Assembly: GCA_963832655.1 (NCBI GenBank)
Contig: CAWHUW010000005.1
Location: 65,014-129,013, forward strand
DNA from: an uncultured Thermoleophilia bacterium
Lineage (GTDB): Bacteria; Actinomycetota; Thermoleophilia; UBA2241
DNA length: 64,000 nt
Direction of reading: 5' to 3'
How positions within the stretch are numbered: position 1 is the first letter of the stretch; the number at the start of each line of letters is the position of its first letter. Shown here in pieces: positions 5,194-64,000 of this stretch. Under the pieces are notes generated by a model, which ran no database searches, was not told where the DNA came from, and worked only from the letters and a program-made list of their open reading frames with translations. The position numbers and the translations under genes are program-made.

Positions 5194-6513
<1,320 letters not shown>

Positions 6514-6598
6514 CTGGACGCGATAGGCTCCGGGCAGAGCGAGACCCGCCGGGGTCGCGCAGCCACCCGACGTGGGACGACCTGAGAGGGGGCCTCCA

Positions 6599-8087: not shown

Positions 8088-8150
8088 GGCGGCGCCCGAT
8101 GGCGGAGAACATGGGCGCGCTGACGCCCGGCACGACTGGGTAAGGCGCTG

Positions 8151-9919: not shown

Positions 9920-9920
9920 C

Positions 9921-10950: not shown

Positions 10951-11631
10951 GCGACAGAGCAGTCCGGGCCATCCAAGGTCGAGCGCCGGGCAACGACTCC
11001 GGTGGCCGGCGCGATCGCCGGCATCCTCTTCGCCGTGCTGTTCGGCGATCAGCGTCGTCATCATTTCGACCGACGATGACCGACGTCGCCGACGAGTACG
11101 GGTGCCTGGCTGGAGGCGGGACGCCGACAGGTTCAAGTTCGCCCTCAGCCTGCTACCCTTCGCGGGGCTGTTCTTCCTCTGGTTCATCGCCGTGACTCGC
11201 GAGCGCCTGGGCCGGTTCGAGGACCAGTTCTTCGCGACCGTCTTCCTCGGCAGCGGTCTGCTGTTCCTCGCCCTGATGTTCGCCGCCGCCGCCTCGGCGG
11301 GAGCCATCGTCGCCACCTACGCCAGGGACCCGTCCGGCTTCGCCGACAGCACGCACCTACCTCTTACGCGCGGCAGACGGTCGCCCAGATCTTCGGCGTC
11401 TACGCGCTGCGCATGGCGGCCGTCTTCCTCATCTCGCAGGCCACGCTCTGGCTGCGCACCGGGGTGATGCCGCGGTGGATGGCTTTCCTCACCTTTCCCG
11501 TGGCGCTCGTCCTGCTCTTCATCGTGACCGAGGTCACCGTTGGATCATGCTCGTCTTCCCGGCGTGGGTGCTTCCTCGTCAGCGTGTACATCCTCGTCGT
11601 GAATCTCCGCAGGCGAGGAGAGGCGGCATGA
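10937..11631 (+). pseudogene. hypothetical multi-pass membrane protein; several frame breaks
   Basis: ATG 10937 follows GAAGGGGGA. Hydrophobic segments (AGAIAGILFAVLFG, FALSLLPFAGLFFLWFIAVTRERLGRFEDQFFATVFLGSGLLFLALMF, AAVFLISQATLWLRTGVMPRWMAFLTFPVALVLLF) are spread over three frames. Confidence 0.4.
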
Positions 11632-11732
11632 CCCGTCTGCATGGCTGACGCCCAGGCAGGCGGAGCTCGATCACCTGGTCGGATCCGGGTGCTGCGCGTG
11701 AGGCCGACCGGCGGCGCGTCAGCCGAGCCCGC

Positions 11733-19551: not shown

Positions 19552-20301
19552 TCCCCGCCCAGGTACGCGGCCCGCACGTGCGGGTCCGTGAGCAGGGCGG
19601 CGGCTTCGTCCGAGAGCGTCACCCTGCCGGTCTCGAGGACGTAGCCGCGGTCCGAGACCTCGAGCGCCGCGTTGGCGTTCTGCTCCACGAGGAGGATGGT
19701 CGTCCCCTGGGCGTTGATCTCGCGGATGATGTCGAAGATCCTCTCGACGAGCATGGGGGCGAGCCCCATGGACGGCTCGTCCAGCATGAGCAGCTTGGGG
19801 CCGGCCATGAGCGCTCGCCCCATCGCGAGCATCTGTTGCTCGCCGCCCGAAAGGGTGCCGCCGGGCTGCGACTCGCGCTCCTTGAGCACCGGGAAGAGGT
19901 CGAACACGCGGGTGAAGTCGGCGGAGAGGTCTTGGCGCGTGCGCGCGAAGGCGCCCATCTCGAGGTTCTCCTTGACCGTCATGCGCGGGAAGATCTTGCG
20001 CCCCTCGGGCGCCTGCGACAGGCCCAGGGTGACGATCTCGTACGCCGGCACGCCCGTGATGTCCTTGCCGGCGTACGCGATCCGCCCCGAGCGCGGGCGC
20101 TGCAGGCCCGAGATGGCGGCGAGCGTCGTGCTCTTGCCGGCGCCGTTGGCGCCGATCAGCGTGACGACCTCGCCGGCGCGGATCTGCAGAGAGACGCCCT
20201 TGAGCGCCTCGATGTTGCCGTAGAAGACGTGGATGTCCTCGACGTCGAGGAGGACCTCGCCGGCCGCGCGCCTGCGGCGGCGCCGCGTCCTGCGCCAGCA
20301 T
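19548..20301 (-). CDS. livF: branched-chain amino acid ABC transporter ATP-binding protein LivF; one frameshift near 20255
   Basis: ATG 20301 follows GGAGGAGG. TLIGANGAGKST, LSGGEQQMLAMGRAL and LLMLDEPSMGLAP. Length 754 nt is not a multiple of 3. Confidence 0.85.
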
Positions 20302-20315
20302 GACCTCCTCCGCCG

Positions 20316-21107
20316 TCACGCGCTCTTCCCCAGGTACGCCTCGATGACCCGCGGGTCGCGACGCACTTCGTCCGGCGACCCTTCGGCGATCTTCTCGCCG
20401 TGGTCGAGCACCACGATGCGGTCGGAGATGCCCATGACCACCTTCATGTCGTGCTCGATGAGAATGATCGTCATGCCCTCGTCGCGGATGCGCCGGATCA
20501 GTCCCATGAGGGCGGCGGTCTCCTGCGGGTTCATGCCCGCCGCCGGCTCGTCGAGGAAGAGCAGCGTCGGTTCGGTGGCCAGGGCGCGGGCGATCTCGAG
20601 CCGCCGCTGCGAGCCGTAGGGCAGGTTCTTGGCGAGCTCGCCGGCGTGCCCGCCGAGGCCCACGTACTCGAGCAGCTCGAGCGACTTGTCGTGCGCGTCC
20701 TGCTCTTCACGCTTGGCGCGCGGCGTGCGCAGCACGACGCTCAGCACGCCGCTGCTCGTGCGGCAGTGCCGCGCCACCATCACGTTCTCGAGCGCCGTCA
20801 TCTCGTTGAAGAGGCGGATGCTCTGGAAGGTGCGCGCGACACCGAGCTTCGTCACCTTCGACGGCAGCATCCCGGCGATGTCGTGACCGAGAAAGCGGAT
20901 CGCCCCGGAGGTCGGCGGATACACGCCGGTGATGGCGTTGAACAGCGTCGTCTTGCCGGCGCCGTTGGGCCCGATCAGCCCGACGATCTCGTTCTCGTCG
21001 GCGTGGAAGTCGACTTTGTTCACGGCGAGCAGACCGCCGAAGGCCTTGACGGCCTGGACGGTCTCGACGATGCGGCGCCGCTCGGCGGTCGCGTCAGCCA
21101 CGGGCAT
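20316..21107 (-). CDS. livG: branched-chain amino acid ABC transporter ATP-binding protein LivG
   Basis: MPVADATAERRRIVETVQAVKAFGG, GLIGPNGAGKTT, LPYGSQRRLEIARAL and LLFLDEPAAGMNP. Confidence 0.9.
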   Translation of the reverse strand: MPVADATAERRRIVETVQAVKAFGGLLAVNKVDFHADENEIVGLIGPNGAGKTTLFNAITGVYPPTSGAIRFLGHDIAGMLPSKVTKLGVARTFQSIRLFNEMTALENVMVARHCRTSSGVLSVVLRTPRAKREEQDAHDKSLELLEYVGLGGHAGELAKNLPYGSQRRLEIARALATEPTLLFLDEPAAGMNPQETAALMGLIRRIRDEGMTIILIEHDMKVVMGISDRIVVLDHGEKIAEGSPDEVRRDPRVIEAYLGKSA

Positions 21108-22239
21108 CGGACCACTCCTCACGCTCGTGCTCGCCCTCGCTCCGGCTTCCCGGCCGCATCTCGAGCGCCACGCGCACAGAGCCCAGGAGCCCTTGCGGGC
21201 GGAAGACCATGAGCAACACCAGCACGAGCCCCATGGCGATGCCGCGCGTCTCGGGGTGCGTCTGCACGAAAGAGAAGTCGCGCAGCCACTCCTGCAGCGA
21301 GACCCAGATGATGGCACCCAGTACCGGGCCCCAGATGTTGCCCATGCCGCCGAGCACGACCAGGCTCAGGATGAGGAACGACTCCATGAGCATGAAGCTG
21401 CTCGGCGAGATGAAGTTGATGTAGTGGCCGAAGAAGACGCCCATGACGCCGGCGAAGAAGGCGCCCGACGCGTACGAGAGCAGCTTGTAGCGCGAGGTGT
21501 GGATGCCCATCGCCTCGGCGGCGACCTCGTCCTCGCGGATCGCGGTCCAGGCCCGCCCGATGCGCGAGCGCACGATGCGCGAGATCGCCCATAACGAGAC
21601 GACGGCGATCGCCAGCGCCACGAAGTAGAGGCTGATCTGCTCCTGGAACTTGAAGCCGAAGAGCTCCGGTTTGGGGATGCCGGGAATGCCGGAGGGGCCA
21701 CGCGTGAGGCCGACCCAGTTGCTCGCCACGATGCGGATGATCTCACCGAAGGCCAGGGTCATGATCGCCAGGTAGTCTCCGCGCACGCGCAGCGTCGGGT
21801 AGCCGATGAGCACGCCGGCCAACGACGCCAACAGGCCGCCGACCAGCAGGTTGACCCACATCAGCCACCAGTAGTCGTCGACGTCGACCCCGTACTTCGT
21901 CTTCAGGACCTGGTAGAAGATGATCGCCGTGTAGTAGGCGCCGATCGCGTAGAAGGCCACGTAGCCGAGGTCGAGAAGACCCGTGAAGCCGACGACGATA
22001 TTGAGGCCGGAGGCGAGCACGACGTAGACCACGACCACCGTGAGCAGGGTGATCCAGCGGTTGGAGCCGAGCAGGAACGGCAGGACGACGGCGACGGCGA
22101 GCAGCACGCCGAGCACGATCGTCTGCGTGCGCGACGAGCCGTCGCCGACGAACGCGGACGCGATGGGGTTCAGCTTCGTCTTCCAGCGGCCGTCGCCGCC
22201 CTGACCGCCTCCCGCCTTCTGAGGCGCCGGGGTCGCCAT
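21094..22239 (-). CDS. livM: branched-chain amino acid ABC transporter permease LivM
   Basis: ATG 22239 lies 1 nt after the livH stop. GLNIVVGFTGLLDLGYVAFYAIGAY and REDEVAAEAMGI. Confidence 0.9.
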   Translation of the reverse strand: MATPAPQKAGGGQGGDGRWKTKLNPIASAFVGDGSSRTQTIVLGVLLAVAVVLPFLLGSNRWITLLTVVVVYVVLASGLNIVVGFTGLLDLGYVAFYAIGAYYTAIIFYQVLKTKYGVDVDDYWWLMWVNLLVGGLLASLAGVLIGYPTLRVRGDYLAIMTLAFGEIIRIVASNWVGLTRGPSGIPGIPKPELFGFKFQEQISLYFVALAIAVVSLWAISRIVRSRIGRAWTAIREDEVAAEAMGIHTSRYKLLSYASGAFFAGVMGVFFGHYINFISPSSFMLMESFLILSLVVLGGMGNIWGPVLGAIIWVSLQEWLRDFSFVQTHPETRGIAMGLVLVLLMVFRPQGLLGSVRVALEMRPGSRSEGEHEREEWSDARG

Positions 22240-22240
22240 C

Positions 22241-23179
22241 TCAGGCCTTCTGCGAGATCGTCGAGCCGAGCAGGCCTGACGGCCTGAACGACAGGATGAG
22301 GATGAGGATGACGAAGGCGAACGCGTCGCGGTACTGCGAACCCATCGGCAGATAGGCCGAGCCGAGCGCCTCGATGACGCCGAGCAGCAGGCCGCCGAGG
22401 AAGGCGCCGGGGATGTTGCCGATGCCGCCGAGCACGGCGGCGATGAACGCCTTGAGGCCGGGGACGAACCCCATCGTCGGCCACGCGGCGTGGTAGACGC
22501 CGCCGTACAGGCCACCGGCCAGGGCGCCCAGCGCCGAGCCGATGAGGAAGGTCAGGGCGATGACCTTGTTCACGTTCACGCCCATGAGCGCGGCGGTGCG
22601 CTTGTCCTGGGCCGAGGCGCGCATCGCGCGCCCCATGCGTGTCCGTCCCACATACAGGTTCAGGAGAAGCATGACGACGACCGTCACGACGACGACGAAG
22701 ACCTGCAGGTAGGTGATCTGCACTCCGCCGACCTCGAACGCCTTCTGCGCGCCCTCAGCGTCGGTGAACAGCGGGATGTCCGGGAAGGCGACCTGCTGCG
22801 AACCGAAGATCGCCTGAGCGACGTTCTGCAGGAGGATCGAGACGCCGATCGCCGAGATGAGCGCCGCCAGGCGAGGAGCGTTGCGCAACGGGCGGTACGC
22901 GAGACGCTCGATGATCACGCCCATGAGGCCGACCGCGGCCATGGCGATCATGATGGCGAGAAAGAAGTTGAGCTCCGGCATGGCGATGGTGCTGCCGAAG
23001 ATCGTCATCTCCGGGACCATCATCATGATGGTGATGAAGGCGCCGAACATGAAGAGCTCGCCGAAGGCGAAGTTGATGAGCTCGATGATGCCGTAGACCA
23101 TCGTGTAGGCCACGGCGATGAGCGCGTAGAGGCAGCCGATCATGAGGCCGTTGACGAGTTGCTGGGCCAGTTCGCTCAT
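22241..23179 (-). CDS. livH: branched-chain amino acid ABC transporter permease LivH
   Basis: MSELAQQLVNGLMIGCLYALIAVAYTMVYGIIELINFAFGE; RAMRASAQDKRTAALMGVN. Confidence 0.9.
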   Translation of the reverse strand: MSELAQQLVNGLMIGCLYALIAVAYTMVYGIIELINFAFGELFMFGAFITIMMMVPEMTIFGSTIAMPELNFFLAIMIAMAAVGLMGVIIERLAYRPLRNAPRLAALISAIGVSILLQNVAQAIFGSQQVAFPDIPLFTDAEGAQKAFEVGGVQITYLQVFVVVVTVVVMLLLNLYVGRTRMGRAMRASAQDKRTAALMGVNVNKVIALTFLIGSALGALAGGLYGGVYHAAWPTMGFVPGLKAFIAAVLGGIGNIPGAFLGGLLLGVIEALGSAYLPMGSQYRDAFAFVILILILSFRPSGLLGSTISQKA

Positions 23180-23273
23180 GCGGTCCTTCGCTTGCCTCGC
23201 GTCGCTCGGGTGGTCGGTCGGGGAGGGGCGACGCCTGCTACGCCGCGCGCCCCTCCCCGCGTGATGCTCTAGC

Positions 23274-24446
23274 TTATTCGGCCGCCGGCTGCACCGGCGC
23301 GGTGGCCAGCGCGCCGTCCTGCACGATGACGATGCTAAGTGGCTTGATGACGTCGCCGTTCTCGTCGAAGGTGATCGGGCCGGAGATGCCCTCGTAGGTG
23401 CCGATCTCGGCAAGCGCGTCGTTGATTGCCGTGCGGTCGTTCGAGCCGGCCTTCTCGGCCGCGGCCGCGGCGAGCATGGTCACGTCGTACGCGTTGGCCG
23501 CGAACCAGTCGGGGTTGGCGCCCTCGAACTTGGCCTTGTACGCCTCGACGAACGCCTGCACCGCCGGATCGTCCTTGGTGTAGTCGAAGAAGGTCGAGAC
23601 GAGCATGCCCTCGACCGCCGCCTTGCCGAGCTTGGGCAGCTCGTCGGAGGCGTACCCGTCGGAGCCGAGAAGCTGGACGTCCATGCCGAGCTCGCTGGCC
23701 TGCTGGGCGATCTTCGAGCCCTCCGGGTAGTAGCCCGAGAGGAAGATCAGCTCGGGGCCGGCGCCCTTGACCTTGGTGAGCTGGGCTTTGAAGTCGGTGT
23801 CGCCGGCGGCGTACTGCTCCTTGGCGACGACCGAGCCGCCGGCCGCCTTGATGCCGGCGTCGTAGGCATCGGCGAGGCCGCGCCCATAGTCGGAGTTGTC
23901 GTAGATGATGGCCACGTTCTTCATGCCGAGATCGTTCACGCTGTAGTTGGCGAGACCCGCGCCCTGGACGGCGTCGGTCATGCAGATGCGCCAGACGAAA
24001 GCGCCCAGGGAGGTGATGTCCGGCTGGGTGGCCGACGGCGTGATCATGGGCAGGCCGGCGGCCTCGTACTTGGCGCCGGCCGCGATGGTCGCGCCGGAGA
24101 ACATGTGGCCGTTCACAAGGACGAGTTCGCTGTCGTCGATGAACTTCTGGGCCACGAGCACGGCCTCTTTCGGGTCGCCCAGGTCGTCGCCCAGTTCCAT
24201 GGACGCGTCGGCGCCGTTGACGCCGCCGTCGGCGTTGAGCTCTTCGATGGCGATCTCGACGCCGGCCTTGTGCGAGGCGCCGTAGGTGGCGTACTGGCCG
24301 GTCATGGGGCCGGCGACGCCGATCTTGAACGGCGCGGCGGCTTCGTCGCCGCCGTCGTCGCCGCCGCAACCGGCCACGACAAACACGGCCACGGCCGCGA
24401 GGACGAGAACGGAGAACAGGATGAGTTTCGCGCGCGTGTCCTTCAA
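23274..24446 (-). CDS. branched-chain amino acid ABC transporter substrate-binding lipoprotein (LivK/LivJ family)
   Basis: TTG start follows AAGGGAGG. Lipobox LAAVAVFVVAGCGG. Type-1 periplasmic binding fold (IGVAGPMTGQYATYG...). Confidence 0.9.
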   Translation of the reverse strand: MKDTRAKLILFSVLVLAAVAVFVVAGCGGDDGGDEAAAPFKIGVAGPMTGQYATYGASHKAGVEIAIEELNADGGVNGADASMELGDDLGDPKEAVLVAQKFIDDSELVLVNGHMFSGATIAAGAKYEAAGLPMITPSATQPDITSLGAFVWRICMTDAVQGAGLANYSVNDLGMKNVAIIYDNSDYGRGLADAYDAGIKAAGGSVVAKEQYAAGDTDFKAQLTKVKGAGPELIFLSGYYPEGSKIAQQASELGMDVQLLGSDGYASDELPKLGKAAVEGMLVSTFFDYTKDDPAVQAFVEAYKAKFEGANPDWFAANAYDVTMLAAAAAEKAGSNDRTAINDALAEIGTYEGISGPITFDENGDVIKPLSIVIVQDGALATAPVQPAAE

Positions 24447-24536
24447 GTTGCCTCCCTTTGGGGACTGCAGTGACGACGCGGGACCACGCCGCCGGAACGG
24501 TAGGCTCCGGAGGCCGGTCCCGCTCGATTGCCGGGG

Positions 24537-24566
24537 AGTCTAGAGGCGCACTGAGGGCTCCGTCAA
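24537..24566 (-). promoter_or_regulatory. candidate sigma-70-type promoter of the liv operon (-35 TTGACG, 18-nt spacer, -10 TAGACT)
   Basis: The minus strand reads TTGACG-GAGCCCTCAGTGCGCCTC-TAGACT about 90 nt upstream of the livK TTG start. Pattern match only. Confidence 0.35.
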
Positions 24567-30462: not shown

Positions 30463-30669
30463 GATTCCTCCCGGAGATGATACGAGCGTGCGGTGAGCTT
30501 CCCGCCTGAGGCTTGTATCCGGATTCCTCGCACGGGAAACGACTCGCGCACGGCGGTCCTTCCGCGGTCTCTTCCCTGGACCGCCACGCTGGTGTACCTT
30601 GTGGGATAGTCCGGCATACGACCGGCTGAAACCACACAAGTCGACCGACGACGAAGGGGAGTCGCGCGT

Positions 30670-31500
30670 ATGCACACGATCATCGACCGCCAGGAGCTCA
30701 CCAAGGGAGATATGATCTCGATCACCGTCGAGGCGCCGGCCATCGCCCGCAAGATCCACCCCGGGCAGTTCATCGTCCTGCGCGTCAACGAGACCGGCGA
30801 GCGCACGCCCCTCACCGTCGCCTACAAGGACGAGGTCCACGGCACCATCACCATCATCTTCCAGGTGCTCGGCAAGACCACGGCCATGCTCTCCTCCCTC
30901 AAGATCGGCGACGCCATCAAGGACCTGGTCGGCCCGCTGGGCTGCGACGAGCGCTTCAAGAAGGTCGGCACGGTCGTCGGCATCGGCGGGGGTTCGGGCA
31001 TCGCCGTGCTGCATCACATCCTGCAGGGCTCCAAGGAGGCCGGGAACTCGCTGATCGGCATCGTCGGCGCGCGTGAGAAGGCGCTTTTGATCCTCGAGAA
31101 CGAGATGGACGACCTCTGCGAACGGCTGCTGATCACCACCGACGACGGCAGCTACGGCATTCACGGACTGGTCACCGACGCCCTCGCCCAGCTGGTCGAG
31201 GAACAGGTGCATATCGACGAGGTGATCGCCGTCGGTCCCCTGATCATGATGCGTGCCGTCTGCGAGATGACCCGGTTGTACCAGATCCCCACCCTCGTGA
31301 GCCTCAACCCGATCATGGTCGACGGCACCGGCATGTGCGGCGGCTGTCGGGTGACGGTCGGGGGCGAGACAAGGTTCGCCTGCGTCGATGGCCCGCACTT
31401 CGACGGTCATAAGGTCGACTTCGACGAGCTGATGCGGCGCAACATGATGTACTCGCGCGACGAACGCACGTCGCTGCTGACCTCGATCAAGGCGCGATAG
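30670..31500 (+). CDS. NfnA/SudB-like ferredoxin-NADP+ reductase subunit alpha (PyrK-like FAD/NAD-binding, 2Fe-2S)
   Basis: RVNETGERTPLTVA, GIGGGSGIAVLHHI and the C-terminal CGGCRVTVGGETRFACVDGP. Confidence 0.85.
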   Translation: MHTIIDRQELTKGDMISITVEAPAIARKIHPGQFIVLRVNETGERTPLTVAYKDEVHGTITIIFQVLGKTTAMLSSLKIGDAIKDLVGPLGCDERFKKVGTVVGIGGGSGIAVLHHILQGSKEAGNSLIGIVGAREKALLILENEMDDLCERLLITTDDGSYGIHGLVTDALAQLVEEQVHIDEVIAVGPLIMMRAVCEMTRLYQIPTLVSLNPIMVDGTGMCGGCRVTVGGETRFACVDGPHFDGHKVDFDELMRRNMMYSRDERTSLLTSIKAR

Positions 31501-31509
31501 GGGGCCGGG

Positions 31510-33348
31510 ATGATGCAGTCCAAAGAGCTGCTCGCCAGCATCCTCGATGAGACCGATGTGCCGGCCTTCTGTCCCCAGTGCCATGAGGCGCTCAACCGCT
31601 ACGAGCTCAAGCCGCGCAAGGTGTGGATGCGCCTGCACGTGCGGGCCGCGGGCAAGAACGGCGAGCTGCTGCTCGCCCCGGGCTGGGACGTCGTCGACGG
31701 CCGCGTCGCCGTGCAGTTCGAGCGCCGCACCGACCTCGAGCTCGAAGAGGGCCAGGTGGTCGACGACCTTCTCTGCCCGCACTGCGGCGGCTCGCTGATC
31801 GAAAAGGACGCCCATTGCGAGGAGTGCGCCTCGCCGGTCGCCGTGGTGGTCGCCTCCATGCAATCCAAGCTCGTCGACTTCACCATCTGCAGCAAGGTGG
31901 GCTGCAGCGGGCACGGCATCTCTCCCACCGACGAAGCCCGCATCAAGCCCAAGGTCGGGCGCCAGAAGAAGCCCGAACAGGACGCGCTGCTGCGCACCCG
32001 CAACTTCCAGGAGGTCTCGTACGGGTTCGACCGCGAACTCGCTGTCATGGAAGCCGGCCGCTGCATCCAATGCAAGAAGCCGGCGTGTGTGGCCGGGTGC
32101 CCGGTGGGCGTCGACATCCCCGGGTTCATCGGCCTCATCAAGGAGAGCAGGTTCGTCGAGGCGGCGCGGATGATCAAGGAGAAGAACGCCCTGCCGGCGA
32201 TCTGCGGCCGCGTCTGTCCCCAGGACGACCAATGCGAGAAGATCTGCGTGCTGGGAAAGAAAGAGCAGCCCGTGGCGATCGGCAACCTCGAACGCTTCGC
32301 GGCCGACTTCGAGCGTGAGACCGACGCGGTGACGATCCCCCGCAGGGCCGCCTCGACCGGCAAGCGCGTCGCCGTGGTCGGCGCCGGTCCGGCCGGCCTC
32401 ACCCTGGCCGCCGATATGGTCGCCAAGGGCCACTCGGTGACGGTGTTCGAGTCGCTGCACGAGCCCGGTGGTGTGCTGGTCTACGGCATCCCCGAGTTCC
32501 GTTTGCCCAAGGCCATCGTCAGGGCCGAGATCGACTACCTGCGGCGGCTGGGCGTCAAGATCGAGGTCAACTCGATCGTCGGGCGTCTCTACACGGTCGA
32601 TGAGCTCTTCGAGACCGGCTACGACGCCGTCTTCGTGGGTACCGGCGCCGGTCTGCCGGTCTTCATGAAGCTGCCCGGCGAGAACCTCTGCAACATCCTC
32701 TCGGCCAACGAGTACCTCACGCGGGTCAATCTCATGAAGGCGTACGCGTTCCCCGAGTACGACACGCCGGCGCCACACGGGCGCCAGGTCGCGGTGCTGG
32801 GCGGCGGAAACGTCGCCATGGACTGCGCACGCACCGCAGTGCGCATGGGCAGCCGCGAGGTCTCGATCGTCTACCGCCGTACGCGCGACGAGATGCCGGC
32901 ACGTACCGAGGAGATCGAGCACGCCGAGCAGGAGGGCGTCCGCTTCCGTTACCTGACCAACCCGATCCGCTACATCGGCGACGACCAGAGCTGGGTGCGG
33001 CAGATGGAGTGCATCCAGATGCAGCTCGGCGAACCCGACGACTCGGGCCGACGCAAGCCCATCCCCAAGGCGGGGTCCAACTTCCTCATGGACGTCGACA
33101 TGGTCGTGGTGGCCGTCGGCGCCGGACCAAACCCGGTGCTCTTCTCCGGCGCGCCCAAGCTCGAGCGCAACGACTGGGGCTACATCGACGCGCGGACCGA
33201 GGCTGGCCGCACCAGCATGAAGGGCGTTTGGGCCGGCGGCGACATCGTCACCGGCTCGGCGACGGTGATCCTCGCCATGGGCGCCGCCCGCCAGGCGGCC
33301 GACGACATGCACGAGTACCTCACGAACGGCGGCGGCGCCTGGGCGTAG
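31510..33348 (+). CDS. NfnB/GltD-like NADPH-dependent oxidoreductase beta subunit with about 150-aa Cys-rich N-terminal extension
   Basis: The core from about residue 155 contains RNFQEVSYGF, RCIQCKKPACVAGCPVGVDIP, ICGRVCPQDDQCEKIC, VAVVGAGPAGL, VAVLGGGNVAMDCART and GVWAGGDIV. The extension carries CPQC, CPHC, CEEC and two further Cys. Confidence 0.85.
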   Translation: MMQSKELLASILDETDVPAFCPQCHEALNRYELKPRKVWMRLHVRAAGKNGELLLAPGWDVVDGRVAVQFERRTDLELEEGQVVDDLLCPHCGGSLIEKDAHCEECASPVAVVVASMQSKLVDFTICSKVGCSGHGISPTDEARIKPKVGRQKKPEQDALLRTRNFQEVSYGFDRELAVMEAGRCIQCKKPACVAGCPVGVDIPGFIGLIKESRFVEAARMIKEKNALPAICGRVCPQDDQCEKICVLGKKEQPVAIGNLERFAADFERETDAVTIPRRAASTGKRVAVVGAGPAGLTLAADMVAKGHSVTVFESLHEPGGVLVYGIPEFRLPKAIVRAEIDYLRRLGVKIEVNSIVGRLYTVDELFETGYDAVFVGTGAGLPVFMKLPGENLCNILSANEYLTRVNLMKAYAFPEYDTPAPHGRQVAVLGGGNVAMDCARTAVRMGSREVSIVYRRTRDEMPARTEEIEHAEQEGVRFRYLTNPIRYIGDDQSWVRQMECIQMQLGEPDDSGRRKPIPKAGSNFLMDVDMVVVAVGAGPNPVLFSGAPKLERNDWGYIDARTEAGRTSMKGVWAGGDIVTGSATVILAMGAARQAADDMHEYLTNGGGAWA

Positions 33349-33420
33349 CCCGTCGCGGCGTTCGCTCGCTCAGGCCGACCGGGAACTCGCGGCCCCTCGA
33401 GGGCTGCGGTCCACGCGCGT

Positions 33421-34719
33421 CTATCCCTTGCGGCGATAGACGCGGCGCAGCTCGTCGATGCGGTGCTTCGAGAGGAAGACGCAGTCTCCCTTGGCGGCAT
33501 GGCCGGTCGTCACGTCGTGAGCCATCACTCTGCACGACGGCGCACCGCAAAGCCCGCAGTCGAGCCCGGGGAGAAGGCTCTCGATCTGGTCAGCCTCCTT
33601 CAGGCGTCGCACTCGCTCGCGCAGGTCGCCGACCATGACGGTGGTGCGGGGCTCGGGCACGCGCGAGAGCGAGAAGTCCTCGTTGGCGTACCGCCGCGCG
33701 ACCTCGGCCTCGGTGTGCGGATCCGTGTGGGGAAGCTCCGACGCGAGACTCTGCAGCTTCGCCTGCGACAGATACACGTTGTCCACAGTGAGGTTGCCGT
33801 TGCCACAGCCCGCCCAGCACGCGCTGCACTCGAGGAAGTCGATGTTCTTGAGCCTTCCCTGCTCCACGTCGTCGAAGACCCGGATCACGTTGGGCAGACC
33901 CGTGACGGACAGGTAGCGGTGCTGGCTGGGGAGGTCGGCGAGCGGGCGCGGCGTGGACCAGCTCACCATCGAGGCCGAGCGCACGGGATCCAGCTCCGTG
34001 CGCGCCTCGCCCTGCTTCACCGCGTCGCGCGCGGCGGCCAGCACCGAGTTGTAGATCTGCGGTATGCCGATCGCGCCGTCAAGCGTGCTGCGCCCGCCCT
34101 CGGCGGGCTGTTCGATGGAGACGGTCTTGGCCTGGCAGGTCGCCACGTAGATGGCGGCGATCTGTTCCTCGGGGAGTCCGAGCTCACGCGAGTAGTGCCG
34201 CTTCACCTCGCGCCCCGCGATCTCGCGCGGCGGCTTCATGCGGATGAGCTGCTCGAGCAGCTTCGGGTAGGAGACCTGCAGAAGGCGGACGACCACCGGG
34301 CAGGTGATGGCGATGACCGGACGAGGGCCGGTCCACTTGTCGACGTAGTCGACGATCGCGAGCGTCGTCAGCCTCAGGTCGACGCCGAAGTCCCAGACCG
34401 CGTCGAAGCCGACCGCGAGCAGACCGTGCACGATGTGCTCCGGGTGGACCTCCGGCGGGAACTGCCCGAAGAGCACCGGCGACGGCACGGCCACCTTGAA
34501 CGGGAAGTCGGCGAAGTCGGCGAGCGTGCGTGAGGTCGGCCGGATGGCCCCCGACGCGCACACCGTGAGGCACGCACCGCAGTCGATGCAGAGCTCGTTG
34601 ATCGCCCGCGCCTTGCCCTCGCGCACCCTGATCGCATCCGTCGGGCAGGCCCTCATGCAGGTCATGCAGCCCGTGCAGTCGTCCTCGCAGATGACGAAGC
34701 CGTGGGCGTACTCAACCAA
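33421..34719 (-). CDS. [FeFe]-hydrogenase-like protein, putative sensory type (2x[4Fe-4S] N-terminus, H-domain, C-terminal 4-Cys motif)
   Basis: CTGCMTCMRACP and CIDCGACLTVCA. H-cluster-like motifs AITCPVV (compare TSCCP), ATCQAKTVSIE (compare MPCxxKxxE) and ECSACWAGCGNG (compare ExMxCxxGCxxG). C-terminal CGLCGAPSCRV...DCVF. Confidence 0.8.
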   Translation of the reverse strand: MVEYAHGFVICEDDCTGCMTCMRACPTDAIRVREGKARAINELCIDCGACLTVCASGAIRPTSRTLADFADFPFKVAVPSPVLFGQFPPEVHPEHIVHGLLAVGFDAVWDFGVDLRLTTLAIVDYVDKWTGPRPVIAITCPVVVRLLQVSYPKLLEQLIRMKPPREIAGREVKRHYSRELGLPEEQIAAIYVATCQAKTVSIEQPAEGGRSTLDGAIGIPQIYNSVLAAARDAVKQGEARTELDPVRSASMVSWSTPRPLADLPSQHRYLSVTGLPNVIRVFDDVEQGRLKNIDFLECSACWAGCGNGNLTVDNVYLSQAKLQSLASELPHTDPHTEAEVARRYANEDFSLSRVPEPRTTVMVGDLRERVRRLKEADQIESLLPGLDCGLCGAPSCRVMAHDVTTGHAAKGDCVFLSKHRIDELRRVYRRKG

Positions 34720-35149
34720 GGCCGTCGAGCCTTATCCTCGAGGTGACCGTGGTCCCGACCCCTACCTCGGAGCGGAGGTCGAAGGTGTCGGAGTTCCTCC
34801 TGATGTTCGGCAGTCCCATGCCGAAGCCGAACCCCATCTCGCGCATCTCGTCGGTGGCGGTCGACCAGCCCTCCTCCAGGGCCTGGTCGAGATCGGCGAT
34901 CCCCGGGCCGAGGTCGGCGATCTCGATGCCGATGTCCTCGTCGGTGAGCACGAAGGTCAGCGTTCCCTCGTTGGCGTACATCACGACGTTCATCTCGGCC
35001 TCGAAGCAGACGACGACGACGCGGCGGATGATCTGCGAGTCGATGCCCAGCTCCTTCAGCATCGCCTTGATCTCGGTGGAGATCTCGCCGGCCTTGTCGA
35101 AGTCGTGGCTGTGCAGGGTGAACGAGCGCGAGAGCAGCTCCTCCGTCAC
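34712..35149 (-). CDS. HATPase_c-type anti-sigma-factor-like Ser/Thr kinase (RsbW/SpoIIAB-like)
   Basis: 145 aa; EAEMNVVMYA, IADLGPGIADLD and GFGMGLPNIRR (N, G1 and G2 box-like). Overlaps the hydrogenase-like gene start by 8 nt. Confidence 0.75.
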   Translation of the reverse strand: MTEELLSRSFTLHSHDFDKAGEISTEIKAMLKELGIDSQIIRRVVVVCFEAEMNVVMYANEGTLTFVLTDEDIGIEIADLGPGIADLDQALEEGWSTATDEMREMGFGFGMGLPNIRRNSDTFDLRSEVGVGTTVTSRIRLDGLG

Positions 35150-56860: not shown

Positions 56861-57934
56861 TCAGTCTCCAGCGATCTCCCCCCGCAAGGTCGCCGCGATC
56901 GCCTCCGGCGTCTCGAAGATCAGCTCCCCGCCGAGCTGCTTCTGCAGGAAGTAGTCGTCGGTGCGGTAGTCGGGCTTGAAGGCCGAGCGGGCGATGACGC
57001 GCAGGACGACCGGATGGGCCACCTCGTCCGCGCTCTCGAGCGGGCCGCCATAGAGCGTGAAGTTGAAGGCGGACAGGCTTTCGCGCTCGTACCAGGCGAG
57101 GACCTTGGAGAGGCCGTCGGCGAGCGCCGCCACCTGCTCGGCGCCCAGCGCCGAGACCCTGGCGGCGCCCGGCACGACGGCCATGACCTCGCGGTTGCCG
57201 AGCGGCGCGAACGGCACCAGCCAGGTGCAGCCGGCGCGCTCGGCGACGAAGCGCTCGCCGAGCGCGCGCTCCTCGTCGACCAGCGTTCGCCAGTACGAGG
57301 CGCCGTGCTCGCGCCGAAACGCCGCCGAGCGCTCCCACGTCAGGCGCACCAGCCACGGCACCGCAGGGCCCCCGAACACCTGGAAGTGCGCGTGCACCAG
57401 GCTGGCGCCGGCGGGCAGCATGTGGTTGCAGCACAGCTCGAGGTGCTCGAGGCCGGGGTAAGCGCGTTCGGCGCGGCCGGCGAAGTCGACCGCCGCGCCG
57501 AGTCCCTCTTCCAGAAGGTCGGGCGTGAACTCCGACGGACGGATGAAGTGCCGCTCGGGATAGGTCACCACCGCGTGCAGCGCGGCGAGCGGGAACAGGT
57601 TCGGGAAGACGAGGGCGCGTCCGCGCCGCAGCCGCCCGCCTTCTACCACGTCCTCGGGGTACCGCGGCGTCGTGTCCATCACCTTCTCGGGGCAGAAGAA
57701 GCAGCCCTCGCGCGAACGCCGTGCGAGGTCCTCGGCGTGCCCCCAGTCCGTCTTGCCGAAGAACATCTCCTCCTTGGTCGCGAGTTCGGAGGATGAGGTC
57801 GCCGTCGCCCCGGTGAGCGGGTCGCGGCGCACCTCGATGGTCTGCTCCGCGAACTCCATCCCGGCCAATGGGCTGAAGAAGCCCGCCTTCTCCACGCTGC
57901 GCTCGAACCGGATGAGACCCATGTGACCCTCCAC
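56861..57934 (-). CDS. galactose-1-phosphate uridylyltransferase (GalT/HIT-superfamily) like nucleotidyltransferase
   Basis: Zinc knuckle GCFFCPEK and HxHxQ motif LVHAHFQV. 357 aa, intact. Confidence 0.8.
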   Translation of the reverse strand: MEGHMGLIRFERSVEKAGFFSPLAGMEFAEQTIEVRRDPLTGATATSSSELATKEEMFFGKTDWGHAEDLARRSREGCFFCPEKVMDTTPRYPEDVVEGGRLRRGRALVFPNLFPLAALHAVVTYPERHFIRPSEFTPDLLEEGLGAAVDFAGRAERAYPGLEHLELCCNHMLPAGASLVHAHFQVFGGPAVPWLVRLTWERSAAFRREHGASYWRTLVDEERALGERFVAERAGCTWLVPFAPLGNREVMAVVPGAARVSALGAEQVAALADGLSKVLAWYERESLSAFNFTLYGGPLESADEVAHPVVLRVIARSAFKPDYRTDDYFLQKQLGGELIFETPEAIAATLRGEIAGD

Positions 57935-58262
57935 GACGCGGTGTGTTCCGCGCCGATGCTATGGCCGTCGCGCGCCCCGGGCAACGTTGCGGGGCGCGAC
58001 CACGTTCGCCGGCGCTTCCCCTGGATCGCCGCTGGGGTCGCCCTCGATGAAGCAGATTGTGTGCGTCGTCGCCCACAACTGTTGTGTCGTCCCGCGGATT
58101 TGCGTTAGTATCTCGCTTCACAAAACCCCCCCGGGTATGCGGCCTGGCGAGCGCCGAGCCGCTGTTGTGCTCCCGGGGATGTCGTGTTGGGGGATCGACG
58201 CGAGGAGGAATGTGCGCGACATCGACTGGACCGTGTCCAACAAGACCTCTCACGGAGGGAGC

Positions 58263-60826
58263 ATGGGGAAGAAGACAATCCTGTTCATGATCGTGGCACT
58301 CGCGGCCTTTGCCGTCGTGCCGGCGACCGCATCCGCGGACCTCGTCAACGAGTACGGGATGCACTTCGTCGGCAAGACCAAGTGCGTCGAATGCCACAGC
58401 GCGGCGGCGGACGCCACCGTGCACGGGCGCATGGCGCGCACCGGGATCAACCCGACGCCGCCCGCCGAGTGGACCATGTTCAGGTCCGCCGGCGACGCCC
58501 CCCAGGTGCCCGGCACCGCGCCCGCCGTCTGGGCGGCCGGCGGCGAGTACCCCTACGACATGCCCTGGATCACCCTGGGCGACGACACGTCGGGCCTCGC
58601 CACGGAGTACCTCTTCTGGAGGGGCAGCACCGATCCGACCGTCATGCCCTGGAACCTCGTCGAGGGCCTCGTCTACGAGCATGACGAGTGGATGGTCGGC
58701 GAGAGCCCGAGCGGCCTGTACGACGTGACGTACGCGTGCCAGCGCTGTCACCAGCTCGGCAGCACCAACAAGGCCACCAAGGGCGAGATCGTGCCGAACC
58801 CGGAGGCGACCATCGCGCCGACGGCGACAACCGCCGTCCAGTGGGCCCGTGACGCGAGCAAGTCGGTCGCCGACTTCATGAGCGACCCGACCGTGTCTCA
58901 GGCCGGCATGAGCATCCAGTGCGAGTCGTGCCACGGCACCGGTGCCCCGCGTCCGCCGGCCACCACGGCGCCCGCCGACAAGCACTGGAACTCGGGCACG
59001 CAGCTCTCGAACCGCATGCCCGACACCACCTGGCGTCAGCTCGCGACCTCGCAGGTCTGCGGCCAGTGCCACGGTAGCTACACCGCCGTGACCGGCACGG
59101 ACGGCAAGACCACGCTCGGCGTCTACGGCTACACGCCGAACCTGCCGTTCCGCACGTTCGGCGACATCAACGGCCTGTCGGGCGGCGCGTCGTACACCTA
59201 CATCCCGACCGAGGCCGAGTTCATGGCTGCCCCGACGAAGTTCTTCATGTTCCCCAACGGGAGCAACGCCAAGGGCAACCACTACTACTACAACGAGTGG
59301 TCGGCCTCTGCGCACTCGTATCGCGGTGCCTACTACACGGCTACGCCGCCAACGACGAACCCCGACGCCATGACCTACCAGGCCGCCGGCAACGGGCACT
59401 TCAACGCCACCGCGCAGTCGTCCATCGACAGCAAATGCTACAGGTGCCACACCGGCGAGGGCTATCTCGAGAGCAAGGGCGTCATCGACAAGTACCTCGC
59501 CTACAACGAGACGTTCACAGCCACCAAGGACAACACCGGCTTCCTCGGCCAGGAGTGCTCGACCTGCCACGGCGGGCATCCGGCCTCTCTGGACGAGGCC
59601 GACGTGGTGCGTGCGCCCGACAAGGCGGGTCAGCGCAGCGCAACCGGCCTCACCGTGGACAACCAGAGCATCTGCGAGGACTGTCACAACTGGCAGTACG
59701 AGGTGCAGGGCACGAGCCGGTCTACAAGCCGATCGACACGCTCGCTTCGCGCGGCGGCCCGAGTCATCCGCAGCGTGAAACGCTCCGCGGCAAGGTCATG
59801 CTGGACGTCCCCGTCGCCGGCGACTTCATGCCCGGCGTCAAGTGCGAGGACTGCCACATGCCCAAGACCAACAAGGGCGCCAACCGCTACTCGCACGGCA
59901 TGGGCATCATGGAGCCGGGCGACGCCCAGACGTGGATGACGGCAGCCGGCGCAAGCTACATGGGCGAGGACTCGTGCTCGACCTGCCACCCGGCGCAGAC
60001 GCGCATGGAGCTGCAGGACAGCCTCGAGGGCTGGCAGGGTGACGCGACGGCGGCGGCCGACGCAGCCGGAGTCGCGATCACCGCGGCCAAGACCCGCAGC
60101 GAGTTCTCCATGACCGACGCGAGCAACCCCGGTTACATCCTGGTCGGGCGTGCCACGTGGAACTACAAGTCGTGGCAGAGCGATCTCTCGGGCGGCGTCC
60201 ACAACCCCGAGTACGTCGTCGAGGGACTCGAGAAGGCCACGCAGCTGGCGAAGTCGGTCGGCGGTTCGTTCGCCGCCGTCCAGGCGCCGGCTTCCGTCCT
60301 TCCGGGTGGCAACGCGATCGTGTCGGGCAAGCTCGTCAACGGCGACGGCTCTCCGGCCGCCGACGCGACCGTCCAGATCAGCAGCGGCGGGAGCGTCATG
60401 ACGTCCGCGAACGGCGGCTTCGCCTTCCTCGTCAACCCGACCGTGGCCACGACCTACAGCGTGACCTGGGTCCGTTCGGGCGATACTCGCACGAACCTCA
60501 CCAGCCCGAGCGTGACGGTCGCCATGGCCAAGTACGCGTCGACGACGACGATCGCCAGGTCGGCGTCGTCAGTGACCGTCGGCAAGGCGGTGAAGATCTC
60601 CGGCAAGGTCACGTCATCGGTGGCCGTGACCGGCAAGGTCAAGATCTACTTCCGCAAGGGAACGAGCGGGAGCTGGAAGTACTACTCGGTCACCCTGAGC
60701 TCGGGCAGCTACAGCAAGTCGATCACGCTCAGCTCCAAGGGCACCTGGTACTTCAAGTCCGAGTACCTCGGGACCAGCACCATCGCGACGTCCAAGGCAG
60801 CCGAGATCAGCGTGAACGCCAAGTAG
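58263..60826 (+). CDS. secreted nine-haem cytochrome c with C-terminal Ig-like/beta-sandwich domains; one frameshift near 59712
   Basis: ATG follows GGAGGGAGC. Signal peptide MGKKTILFMIVALAAFAVVPATASA. Haem motifs CVECH, CQRCH, CESCH, CGQCH, CYRCH, CSTCH, CEDCH, CEDCHMPK and CSTCH. The C-terminal ~230 aa are Ser/Thr/Val-rich beta repeats. Confidence 0.85.
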
Positions 60827-60866
60827 TCCACGCGCCAGACGCGGCCGGCGACGGCCGTGACGAAAA

Positions 60867-60910
60867 GGGGCCGCAGCGGCGATACGCCGCTGCGGCCCCT
60901 TTCTTTCTCT
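60867..60910 (+). terminator. rho-independent terminator of the cytochrome gene
   Basis: GGGGCCGCAGCGGCG-ATA-CGCCGCTGCGGCCCC followed by TTTCTTTCTCTT. Confidence 0.7.
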
Positions 60911-61038
60911 TCACGTCCTCGCTCGCGCATGCGACGCATCGCTACGGACGGTCGCCACGCGCACTCATCGGCGGAGCGCGCGGTACACTACGATCTCGCG
61001 CGAGCACGAGCGCGTCGTGAGGAGGTGGGGGGCAGCGC

Positions 61039-62781
61039 ATGAACGCGTACGGGATGACGAATGGACGGACGGCAAGGGCGAGCGGCGTCAGCCTGCCGCG
61101 ATGGTGCCGCCACCTCTGCCTCCTGCTCCTCTCGCGGCGCTGCTGTGCGGCGACGCGTCTGCCGGGCTGCGACGGACGCCGCGATCGCCGCCAGACCCGC
61201 GACAGCGCAGCGTGACGCGGTGGCACGAGTGAGGGGCACGGAGCGGACGACGCGACCCGGTCGCTATCAGTATGCCAGCGAAGGCACCGCGTGGACGTTG
61301 AGTAGCGCGACCGGCTGGACGAGCGGCTACGTCGCCGGCGAGCTGTGGCTCATCTACAGATGAGCGGCGGACCGCTGGTGGCGCAGAACGCGCCGCAGTC
61401 GCGCAGGCGCGCGATCGGCGCCGCTCGACATCTCGCCGGCGCTCATGGACCTCGGCGTGCGCTACTACCGAGCTACGTGCGGGGCTCGCGCTGACGGGCG
61501 ACCCGCGTTGAAGGAGGTGGCCCTTCGGGCGGCGGCCGCCCTGGCGGCGCGCTACAGCCCCTGACGTCGGCGTGGTGCGCTCGCGCCGCACGCCGGACGG
61601 CTTCTTCGTGAACGTTGACTCGTTGATGGACCTGCACTTGTTGTGGTGGGGTGCCGCCAACGGCGGGTCGCGGGCATGGCGCGAGATCGCGCGCAGCCAC
61701 GCCCTGACCGTCGCGCGAGATCTCGTGCGTACCGACGGCAGCACGTGCCACGTGGTGCTGTACGACGAGTTGAGCGGCGAGGTGCTGGAACGGCGCCGGG
61801 GGCAGGGCTACTCGGCCGACTCGATGTGGGCGCGCGGGCAGGCCTGGGCGATCGACGGCTTCGCCGATGCCTACCGCGAGACACGCGACCCTCGCTGCTC
61901 GCGGCCGTCGCGCCGGGTAGCGGACCGCTACCTGCTGGATCTGCCGGAAGACTGGGTGCCGTTCTGGGACTTCGATGCGCCGGGCGTCCCGGCCGAGCCA
62001 CGCGACTCGTCGGCGGCGGCTGTGGCCGCGTCGGGGCTGATCGACCTCGCGCTGCTCGAGCCGAACGCGTGAGGGCGGACCACTACGCGGCGGCGGCCCG
62101 CGCCACGCTCGGCGGCCTGGCCTGGGACACATACGCGTCGTTCGGTGAGACGCCGTCCGTGCTCGCCCGTGGGACGCTGGACTTCTGGTCGGGCGACGAT
62201 CGACTCGAGGGCTGGTCTACGGCGACTACTTCTACCTCGAGGCCATGCTGCGTCTGCGTCGGCTTGCCGCCCACGACGCGGAGTCCGAGGTGACGCGCTC
62301 CGGGCGAGCGCCGGCGACGCCGGCCGCGCCGTGGACGGCGACCTCGGCACCGAGCTGGACGACGGACGGGCCGTCAGCGGCTCGACCTGGACCTCGGGAG
62401 CACGCGGACGCTGTGAGCGGCGGTGAGCGTGGCCATGCGCACGAGGGTCCAGACGTGGCGGCAAGCCTGAAGGTCATGACATCGGACGACCGCGAAGGCT
62501 GGGCTCCCGGCCGGCGTCCATGACCAGCGGCGAGGCGGCCGGCTTCGAGACCTACGACTTCTCGCCTCGACAGGCTCGCTGGGTGCGCGTGGAGTGCTTC
62601 GGGACGACCTCGTGCCGGGCGCAGGGTGAACGAGATCGAGGTCTACGAGGCCGACGACACGGCCGCCGCGCCGGTCATCTCGCGATGGCGGAGAGGACGG
62701 GCGCATGACCGGCCGCCGCGCGCTCGCTCGGTTGGGCCGCGCCCGAGCGCTCGTCCGGCGCGCACGACGCCCGACGCCTGA
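61039..62781 (+). pseudogene. decayed glycoside hydrolase family 88 (unsaturated glucuronyl hydrolase)-like gene fused to an F5/8 type C (discoidin) domain
   Basis: Fragments lie in all three frames with internal stops. GH88-like: WTSGYVAGELWLIY, VDSLMDLHLLWWGA, DGSTCHVVLYD, WARGQAWAIDGF, VPFWDFDAPG...RDSSAAAVAASGL and GLVYGDYFYLEAMLRL. Discoidin-like: AVDGDLGT, ARWVRVECFGT and VNEIEVYEADD. Boundaries are approximate. Confidence 0.55.
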
Positions 62782-63489: not shown

Positions 63490-64000
63490 TCAGCCGGCCG
63501 CGCCGGCTCTCTTCTCGGCCTTCTTGCGCTCCTCGGCGCTGAGGATGTGCTTGCGCACGCGCACGGTCTTGGGCGTCACCTCGACGAGCTCGTCGTCGGC
63601 GATCCACTCCAGGGCGCTCTCGAGCGTGAGCGGGCGCGGCACCTTGAGGCCGGCGTCGATCTCCTTGGTGCGACGGGCGGTAGTTGCCGAGCTGCTTGCG
63701 CTTGGTGGGGTTGCAGAGCATGTCGTCGCCGCGCGAGTTCTCGCCGACGATCATGCCTTCGTAGACGCGGTCCATGGGGCTGATGAACAGGGTCGCGCGC
63801 TGCTGCAGGTTCTCGAGCGAGTAGCCGGCGGCCTCGCCGGCCGCCTGGCTGACGAGCGAGCCGCGGTCGCGGCCGGGGAGCTCGCCGCGCCAGGGGCCGT
63901 AGCCGGTGAAGCGCGAGCTCATCACGCCCAGGCCGCGCGTCTCGGTGAGGAAGTCGGAGCGGTAGCCGATGAGGCCGCGCGTCGAGATCGTGAACTCGAG
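63490..64000 (-). CDS. typA: 3' portion of translational GTPase TypA/BipA (continues beyond right edge); one frameshift near 63690
   Basis: ...TRGLGVMSSRFTGYGPWRGELPGRDRGSLVS...VYEGMIVGENSRGDDMLCNPTKRKQL, then in a shifted frame ...LESALEWIADDELVEVTPKTVRVRKHILSAEERKKAEKRAGAAG ending at TGA (complement of 63490-63492). Confidence 0.85.

Follow-up and report, generated by a model that had tools for sequence, protein, structure and literature searches.

The nonahaem gene and its product

The DNA discussed here is a stretch of 64,000 nucleotides (nt) of contig CAWHUW010000005.1, from an uncultured Thermoleophilia bacterium; we refer to this whole stretch as the window. Positions 58263–60826 of its forward strand hold parts of two overlapping open reading frames (ORFs), 57987..59939 in frame 0 and 59297..60826 in frame 2, according to the ORF listing and to direct translation. 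Joined near 59716, they give a single protein of 854 residues with nine haem-binding motifs, hereafter the nonahaem protein. We consider, with a probability of about 0.6, that this is an intact gene mis-assembled by one base, which encodes a Sec-exported nonahaem cytochrome of about 93 kDa that belongs to the OcwA lineage and acts as an extracytoplasmic terminal oxidoreductase. The features of the locus are collected in Table 1.

The joined translation contains exactly nine CxxCH motifs (at residues 41, 159, 220, 266, 392, 432, 471, 528 and 572), as the initial annotation had counted them in a protein of that length, and all 18 cysteines sit inside these motifs. No CxxCK, CX3-4CH or CX15/17CH motif was found in the sequence. 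Conservation was counted over the window protein and 54 aligned relatives (n=55); the nine motifs are invariant (55/55), and therefore this set of motifs is not due to chance. The predicted signal peptide (MGKK, a hydrophobic core, then ATASA before DL) is indeed there: it is the sole hydrophobic segment of the protein, and it is N-terminal. The CEDCHMPK context singled out in the initial annotation is real too; it is that of haem 8 and lies within the part that matches Pfam Cytochrom_C552 (PF02335; residues 525–668, 42.8 bits against a cut-off of 24.1), a match which covers profile positions 244–378 only. The remaining Pfam matches are generic multihaem ones.

Structural models were made of two homologues, P0002, which is 68% identical to the window protein, and P0089. 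The AlphaFold2 model of P0002 (predicted local distance difference test score 87.5, predicted template modelling score 0.79) has strands between residues 58 and 164, which form a beta-sheet domain between haems 1 and 2, three long helices (575–603, 617–635 and 643–658), where a helical segment had been expected from the sequence, and two beta-sandwich domains (663–745 and 755–857, P0002 numbering). The C-terminal tail of the window protein had been described as about 230 residues of Ser/Thr/Val-rich beta-strand repeats. The composition is as described, but the tail is about 190 residues long (666–854) and consists of two different domains, not of sequence repeats. A Foldseek search with the full model matched the Ig-like tail only, for example intimin D0–D1 and complement MG domains.

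Table 1. Coordinates of the features (window positions, except for the loci of relatives in the last row)
Feature	Position	Strand	Remark
Shine-Dalgarno-like GGAGGG	58254..58259	+	3 nt 5' of ATG 58263, read from the sequence
Nonahaem gene, first frame segment	58263..59716	+	residues 1 to ~485: signal peptide, beta-sheet domain, haems 1-7
Sec-type signal peptide, MGKKTILFMIVALAAFAVVPATASA followed by DL	58263..58337	+	sole hydrophobic segment; pattern conserved in the family consensus
Haem motifs 1-4	58383-58397, 58737-58751, 58920-58934, 59058-59072	+	CxxCH
Haem motifs 5-7	59436-59450, 59556-59570, 59673-59687	+	CxxCH
Frameshift site, window ACGAGCCGGTC, one base missing	59712..59722	+	relatives: ACGACGCCGGTC, ACGAGTCCGGTC, ACGAGCCCTGTC or ACGAGCCCG
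Nonahaem gene, second frame segment	59717..60826	+	residues ~486 to 854 and stop
Distal-pocket motif SHPQRE	within 59717..60826	+	second frame segment
Haem motif 8	59843-59857	+	CEDCHMPK
Haem motif 9	59975-59989	+	
Three-helix bundle	~60002-60253	+	limits transferred from the AlphaFold2 model of P0002
Beta-sandwich 1	~60266-60514	+	limits transferred from the AlphaFold2 model of P0002
Beta-sandwich 2	~60530-60823	+	limits transferred from the AlphaFold2 model of P0002
Intrinsic terminator	60864..60912	+	18-bp GC-rich hairpin and T-tract
Gene X, probable partner	18298-19551	-	secreted 417-residue cytochrome; 39 kb from the nonahaem gene
Arylsulfatase, 3 frame breaks	~6500-8200	+	
SulP transporter, at least 2 frame breaks	~8200-10772	+	
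fmt, 1 frame break	~15032		Formyl_trans_N match begins at profile position 75
GH88-like hydrolase, at least 3 frame breaks	61061-62400	+	
typA/bipA, 1 frame break	~63665	-	the two frames joined give a complete BipA_C match
Coriobacteriia loci with a 20-24-CxxCH partner	L013, L016, L018, L019, L022, L024, L025, L026, L031		e.g. L024 13350-15098

Homology to OcwA and the haem pockets

The best match of the single sequence among PDB sequences (phmmer) is 6I5B, with an E-value of 5.6e-11. This entry is OcwA (TherJR_2595), a nonahaem cell-surface terminal reductase of Thermincola potens JR (PMC6703420). With a profile built from 55 sequences of the family, the E-value for 6I5B falls to 4.8e-42, over chain residues 14–145 and 149–493. 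The comparison with NrfA, MccA and ONR that had been suggested at the outset gives far weaker matches (1.8e-10, 4e-5 and 0.012, respectively, followed by c554 at 0.029). The exhaustive representative search also returned the OcwA construct itself (P0207, which starts EKPAD); in a MAFFT alignment with it, the nine CxxCH motifs are all in register, and the identity is 33% over 460 aligned positions. Judged from sequence, the nonahaem protein is an OcwA homologue, of clade 3 (OcwA/OmhA/MccA/c554) of the NrfA-related multihaem superfamily.

In OcwA, haems 1, 3, 4, 6, 7 and 8 are bis-His and haem 9 is His/Met, while a His–His pair lies over each of the five-coordinate haems 2 and 5 (281/282 and 380/381; PMC6703420). 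The nonahaem protein has nine conserved histidines outside the haem motifs: H54, H340, H351, H439, H545 and H647 are present in 55/55 sequences, H241 and H502 in 53/55, and H379 in 49/55. Each of them aligns with an OcwA histidine, and in particular H340 aligns with H282 and H502 with H381, the non-bonding distal histidines of the five-coordinate haems 2 and 5. M523, M547 and M550 are the conserved methionines that are candidates for haem ligation, and M547 aligns with OcwA M397. Four other residues next to the pocket histidines (Y342, Y343, R505 and E506) are invariant.

The resemblance to OcwA therefore extends over the order and register of the nine CxxCH motifs, the CxxCHMPKT of haem 8 and the conserved non-motif histidines. 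It also includes the signal peptide, which is cleaved in OcwA, and, as predicted by the model of P0002, the beta-sheet domain that separates haems 1 and 2 (residues 75–156 of OcwA) and the C-terminal three-helix bundle (PMC6703420). The differences are mainly of size and of pocket. The window protein has 854 residues against about 555, with two C-terminal beta-sandwich domains that OcwA lacks and with insertions such as about 37 residues before haem 3 and the 13-residue loop that carries the frameshift. The HH pairs of the OcwA pockets become N–H and S–H; the invariant Tyr342 and Tyr343 of the clade correspond to Gln and Tyr in OcwA, and the invariant Arg505 to Lys. Last, OcwA comes from a clostridial thermophile, and the window protein from an actinobacterium of high GC content. 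Since the second pocket histidine is absent and the C-terminal architecture differs, the window protein is set apart from plain members of the OcwA family. The initial annotation had allowed for homology to an already characterised family of the same architecture: the haem core largely does fall into such a family, that of OcwA, so that the novelty first ascribed to the protein was overstated, whereas the C-terminal architecture is different.

The frame break at 59716/59717

The initial annotation had placed a correctable frameshift near 59712. The break lies 5 nt further, at 59716/59717, and consists of a deletion of one nucleotide that is specific to the window. The gene of P0001 (locus L001), a homologue with 87% identity, follows the window colinearly as far as ...CAGGGAACGAGCCCG and remains in frame. 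Short-read contigs of related soil and wetland strains break at 59716/59717; one that runs into the site as a loose end (X1) reads GAGCC followed by CTGTCTACAAACCG, which is in frame and codes for TSPVYKP. The sole public run with local 31-mers, from freshwater sediment (X24), provides a contig of 151 nt that has 0 mismatches to the window over 59716–59857 (142 nt), but is preceded there by GGGCACGAC, with one extra C that restores the frame (...QGTTPVYKPIDT...). The only run that holds the local words thus carries an in-frame version. The site is likewise bridged by an RNA contig from sediment (X27), in which an additional base (T) follows 59716. The exact window sequence across the site was found in none of the runs examined. 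The window lacks one base that is present in every independent sequence at 59716/59717.

The loop that opens at the break (59717–59760) corresponds to the 13-residue insertion relative to OcwA. It is highly variable between strains, the short-read contigs of relatives end or diverge in it, and positions 59736–59759 are covered by none of four runs.

The window contains at least 10 further single-base frame breaks, about one per 6 kb (Table 1). Two of them are in essential genes, which argues for assembly error over gene decay: in fmt, the tblastn match is divided between frames +1 and +2, and in typA/bipA, related contigs that cross the break show a one-base difference to the window at 63670–63673. 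This density points to an indel-prone, probably long-read, assembly, and because of these other breaks an assembly indel is the likeliest cause of the break in the cytochrome gene. Frame breaks in the nonahaem gene recur across the assemblies of the "MFD...bin" metagenome-assembled genomes (MAGs), in which the gene is also split across frames at loci L011, L015, L027 and L028 (around 10000–12400). Programmed -1 frameshifting was rejected, for the site lacks a slippery heptamer and the relatives all encode the loop in one frame.

We regard the break as very probably an assembly artefact. The alternative is that the frameshift is real in this strain, and that the gene is a recent pseudogene which gives at most a secreted seven-haem fragment with an out-of-frame tail of 75 residues. 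The window sequence as given is frameshifted, no contig identical across the site turned up in the runs examined, and the site opens a strain-variable loop at which the assembled contigs of relatives break, all of which would fit a true deletion. On the contrary, the contig that matches perfectly over the 142 nt downstream has the extra base, all relatives and the RNA contig are in frame, the GC content at third codon positions (GC3) stays high, every downstream residue conserved in the family is retained, and the other frame breaks of the window extend to housekeeping genes. A pseudogene is therefore quite improbable, and the frame breaks in this window are to be read as assembly errors, not as biology.

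Comparison with other multihaem families

The initial annotation had framed the protein as a NrfA-like or octahaem-like enzyme. The C-terminal module (haems 5–9) is indeed homologous to NrfA (1FS7, 6V0A), with which it shares CxxCHMP, the position of the distal histidine and the helical bundle. However, the window protein has no CxxCK catalytic haem, has nine haems instead of five, and contains an additional c554-like N-terminal module as well as beta domains. No NCBIfam family is reached at its cut-off (NrfA NF008339 scores 15.5 bits against 595, and TIGR03152 9.3 bits against 692.5). An enzyme of the NrfA, ONR, OTR or MccA type was rejected: there is neither CxxCK nor CX15CH, and the profile E-values are far weaker than that of OcwA, which describes the protein much better.

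The octahaem sulfite reductase MccA (4RKM) and cytochrome c554 (1FT5) are the weak profile matches mentioned above. MccA and OcwA have the beta-sheet domain in common (PMC6703420). The window protein lacks the CX15CH (or CX17CH) motif of haem 8 in MccA, and it has nine haems, against eight or four.

OmhA from Carboxydothermus ferrireducens (11 haems, associated with the S-layer; PDB 6QVM as cited in PMC9250108) shares its clade with OcwA and is, like it, a surface multihaem protein of a Gram-positive organism, with both five-coordinate haems. OmhA has an N-terminal two-haem extension, which the window protein lacks; its structure entry did not turn up in the PDB sequence searches with the nonahaem protein or with the profile.

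The Pfam family PF22113 (MtrC/OmcA/UndA decahaem) is matched above its cut-off (42.6 bits, residues 157–274). The role that we propose, surface terminal reductase, is analogous to that of these proteins. However, the match spans a stretch rich in haem motifs only, the window protein has nine haems, not ten, and no split beta-barrel domains, and the model of P0002 is OcwA-like. The fold and the haem arrangement of OcwA are unrelated to those of MtrC (PMC6703420).

Distribution and domain variation of the family

More than 165 homologues of the nonahaem protein were found in a word-indexed search, and an exhaustive search gave about 40 clusters at 50% identity, full-length or nearly so. Nearly all homologues have nine CxxCH motifs. 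The named sources and the GTDB loci are MAGs of Thermoleophilia and Coriobacteriia, together with Coriobacteriaceae sp. EMTCatB1. The window itself has a GC content of 69%, and neighbouring genes are 75–88% identical to Thermoleophilia loci at the amino acid level, so that the host is probably a member of that class, from wetland or sediment. An OcwA homologue was noted earlier in Anaerosoma, which belongs to the Coriobacteriia (PMC9686372), and multihaem proteins of the type involved in extracellular electron transfer (EET) were noted in Thermoleophilia MAGs (bioRxiv 10.1101/2022.03.26.485925); in the literature that we searched, no characterisation of this Thermoleophilia/Coriobacteriia OcwA-like clade was found.

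The haem core and the first beta-sandwich are common to all members, after which the C-terminus varies. It may end there (about 745 residues), continue with an Ig domain of the Big_3_5 type, as in the window protein (about 855 residues), or carry CWB2 cell-wall-binding repeats (about 1030 residues, in Coriobacteriia) or FN3 and other modules.

Gene neighbourhood, partner cytochromes and transcription

The initial annotation described the gene as standing alone. Locally this is so: its neighbours are unrelated genes of housekeeping or metabolism and code for a DedA/VTT protein, a FGGY kinase, a TMEM175-like channel, a broken GH88-like protein and TypA. The divergent upstream neighbour (56861–57934, reverse strand) codes for 357 residues, has a high GC3, and has no Pfam match even at an E-value of 0.01. 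No genes for cytochrome c maturation or quinol oxidation were found among the ORFs of the window that were scanned. What the description missed are the partner cytochromes of relatives and the distant gene X of the window.

The very next gene after the nonahaem gene codes, at 12 loci of Thermoleophilia, for a secreted pentahaem-TIG protein of 340–380 residues, with four CxxCH and one CX3CH motif, IPT/TIG domains and an Ig-like end. Gene X codes for a protein that is 44–53% identical to these partners: it has four CxxCH motifs and one conserved CX3CH (CIATCH), two IPT/TIG domains and, at the C-terminus, an Ig-like domain. Gene X looks co-transcribed with a Liv-type ATP-binding cassette transporter (19548–24539), since the stop codon of livF and the ATG of gene X overlap (ATGA). 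In relatives, the homologue of gene X lies directly 3' of the nonahaem gene, and there it and the same transporter are convergent. A six-frame CxxCH scan showed no second nonahaem paralogue 5' of gene X. At nine Coriobacteriia loci (Table 1), the gene that follows codes instead for a protein of 520–580 residues with an N-terminal membrane anchor and 20–24 CxxCH motifs, whose repeated trihaem-like units make it a candidate for a haem "wire" that would span the cell wall. No cytochrome is adjacent at the long-form loci L002, L010 and L014, nor in the window.

The strong terminator announced downstream of the gene is present (18-bp stem at 60864–60902 with a T-tract, -56.9 kcal/mol, z = -8.2). 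The promoter proposed near 58083–58113 is unsupported: the letters of TTGTGT-N18-TAGTAT are in the sequence, but a scan with the sigma-70 consensus upstream of the gene gives 0 sites. Contigs from sediment and freshwater metatranscriptomes lie on the nonahaem gene (58316–60860); a few pieces are at least 98% identical, and the word depth reaches values above 100x for relatives that are 88–95% identical. None was found on the flanks, at 57900–58210 or beyond 60915. Near-identical sequences are thus transcribed, and the assembled contigs hint that the gene may be a monocistronic unit. A scan of the whole window against Rfam gave no matches.

Elsewhere in the window (30610–34731), a NfnAB/SudAB-like pair (DHODB_Fe-S_bind, then Fer4_20 with Pyr_redox_2) lies beside a [FeFe]-hydrogenase-like protein (Fe_hyd_lg_C), which suggests an anaerobic or facultative host.

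Proposed function

For the haem coordination, the location, the electron partners and the physiological acceptor of the nonahaem protein, we infer the following scheme. The protein would be exported by the Sec pathway and its haems covalently attached, and the nine haems would form a branched chain as in OcwA, made of a c554-like module (haems 1–4) and a NrfA-like module (haems 5–9). Most haems would be bis-His and haem 9 is probably His/Met, while haems 2 and 5 would be five-coordinate and exposed to solvent under the conserved non-bonding histidines H340 (in xHYYY) and H502 (in SHPQRE). Electrons may enter from upstream envelope cytochromes, for which the pentahaem-TIG protein X is a candidate donor, and be passed on to acceptors that are extracellular or soluble, namely Fe(III) minerals, humics or flavins and, when the opportunity arises, nitrite or hydroxylamine. 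The conserved beta-sandwich and the additional Ig-like domain would retain the protein in the cell envelope or act as spacers there. The pointers to the surface are the signal peptide and, in relatives, the CWB2, FN3, Big_3_5 and Ig modules and the poly-haem partners. The general idea of the initial annotation, a redox enzyme at the surface or an electron conduit, fits, since OcwA, the closest characterised protein, is described as both (PMC6703420).

Several observations weigh against this interpretation. Foldseek, run with the model of the haem domain, returned no match at E < 1, neither 6I5B nor any cytochrome, a result which we attribute to a technical failure; the family assignment therefore rests on sequence and profile evidence. 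The second pocket histidine is reported to be a family-wide feature, H281 being kept in all OcwA sequences and H380 conserved as well. Here, the counterpart of H281 is N339, in a column of N, K, S or G with His in only 2/55 sequences, and that of H380 is S501, in a column with Ser in 50/55 and His in 2/55; the chemistry of the pockets may therefore differ. Moreover, nine conserved non-motif histidines are one more than the eight of the OcwA scheme, so that one of the "open" haems could be six-coordinate. How the haems are axially ligated, and that haems 2 and 5 are open, is predicted from the alignment. In the Pfam and sequence scans, the nonahaem protein shows neither a sortase motif nor a transmembrane anchor, and neither an SLH domain nor CWB2 repeats, which makes its retention in the envelope a conjecture. 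One paper calls Thermoleophilia Gram-negative, and if there is an outer membrane, the protein would be periplasmic. The gene adjoins no respiratory or cytochrome-maturation gene in the window. Last, the read depth of the frame-restoring contig X24 is 2, and the reads possibly come from a sister strain.

Two other functions have to be considered. The protein could be a dedicated reductase or detoxifier of a soluble substrate (nitrite, hydroxylamine, nitric oxide (NO) or sulfite) that acts, as NrfA, ONR or MccA do, in the extracytoplasmic space, with catalysis at haem 5, haem 2 or both, and not a terminal protein of EET. The NrfA-like nature of the C-terminal module (the Cytochrom_C552 match, and NrfA structures at 1.8e-10) is consistent with this idea, and so are the residues around the presumed open haems: H502, R505 and E506 by haem 5 and H340, Y342 and Y343 by haem 2 resemble His/Arg/Tyr catalytic sets, and all are invariant save H502 (53/55). 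In addition, nitrite and hydroxylamine are in vitro substrates of OcwA itself, which reduces them (PMC6703420), and nitrite or NO reductase activity in vitro is found across all members of the superfamily. On the contrary, the protein has no CxxCK, CX15CH or Cu-site cysteines, its scores are far under the cut-offs of the NrfA families, and no nrfH, nrfBCD or mcc accessory genes are nearby. Since relatives are also fused to cell-wall-binding or Ig domains and paired with poly-haem "wire" proteins, a pairing more in line with long-range electron transfer, we consider a dedicated soluble-substrate reductase unlikely.

It may also be that electrons flow in the reverse direction, and that the protein is a surface cytochrome for electron uptake, the donor being Fe(II), reduced humics, a cathode or else a syntrophic partner. 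In principle, multihaem chains can run both ways, and Coriobacteriaceae sp. EMTCatB1, which has a member of the family (L024) and an adjacent 24-haem gene, dominates an electromethanogenic biocathode where multihaem cytochromes are up-regulated under closed circuit (PMC7943316). However, L024 could not be mapped to the up-regulated locus tags of that study, whose supplement gives no coordinates, and the sole characterised homologue is described as a reductase (PMC6703420). Nothing in the window bears on the direction of electron flow. We see electron uptake as very improbable, and favor an OcwA-type terminal oxidoreductase.

Implications

To our knowledge, OcwA is among the very few structurally characterised terminal reductases of EET in bacteria without an outer membrane, and it is known only from thermophilic Firmicutes. 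Here, the nine-haem core of OcwA is found in an actinobacterial lineage of high GC content, which is mesophilic and common in soils and wetlands. If the protein is functional, this would extend cytochrome-based extracellular respiration to the Thermoleophilia and the Coriobacteriia, and the clade would offer a natural set of pocket variants for testing the role of the distal His–His pairs of OcwA.

A broader proposal is possible, if doubtful: the window protein may belong to a large, uncharacterised actinobacterial branch of OcwA-like proteins, with its own beta-sandwich, altered pockets (xHYYY and SHPQRE) and exchangeable envelope modules, which together with the partner cytochromes would constitute a distinct EET conduit. 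If this is true, Thermoleophilia would be overlooked iron-, humic- or electrode-respiring organisms of soils and wetlands.

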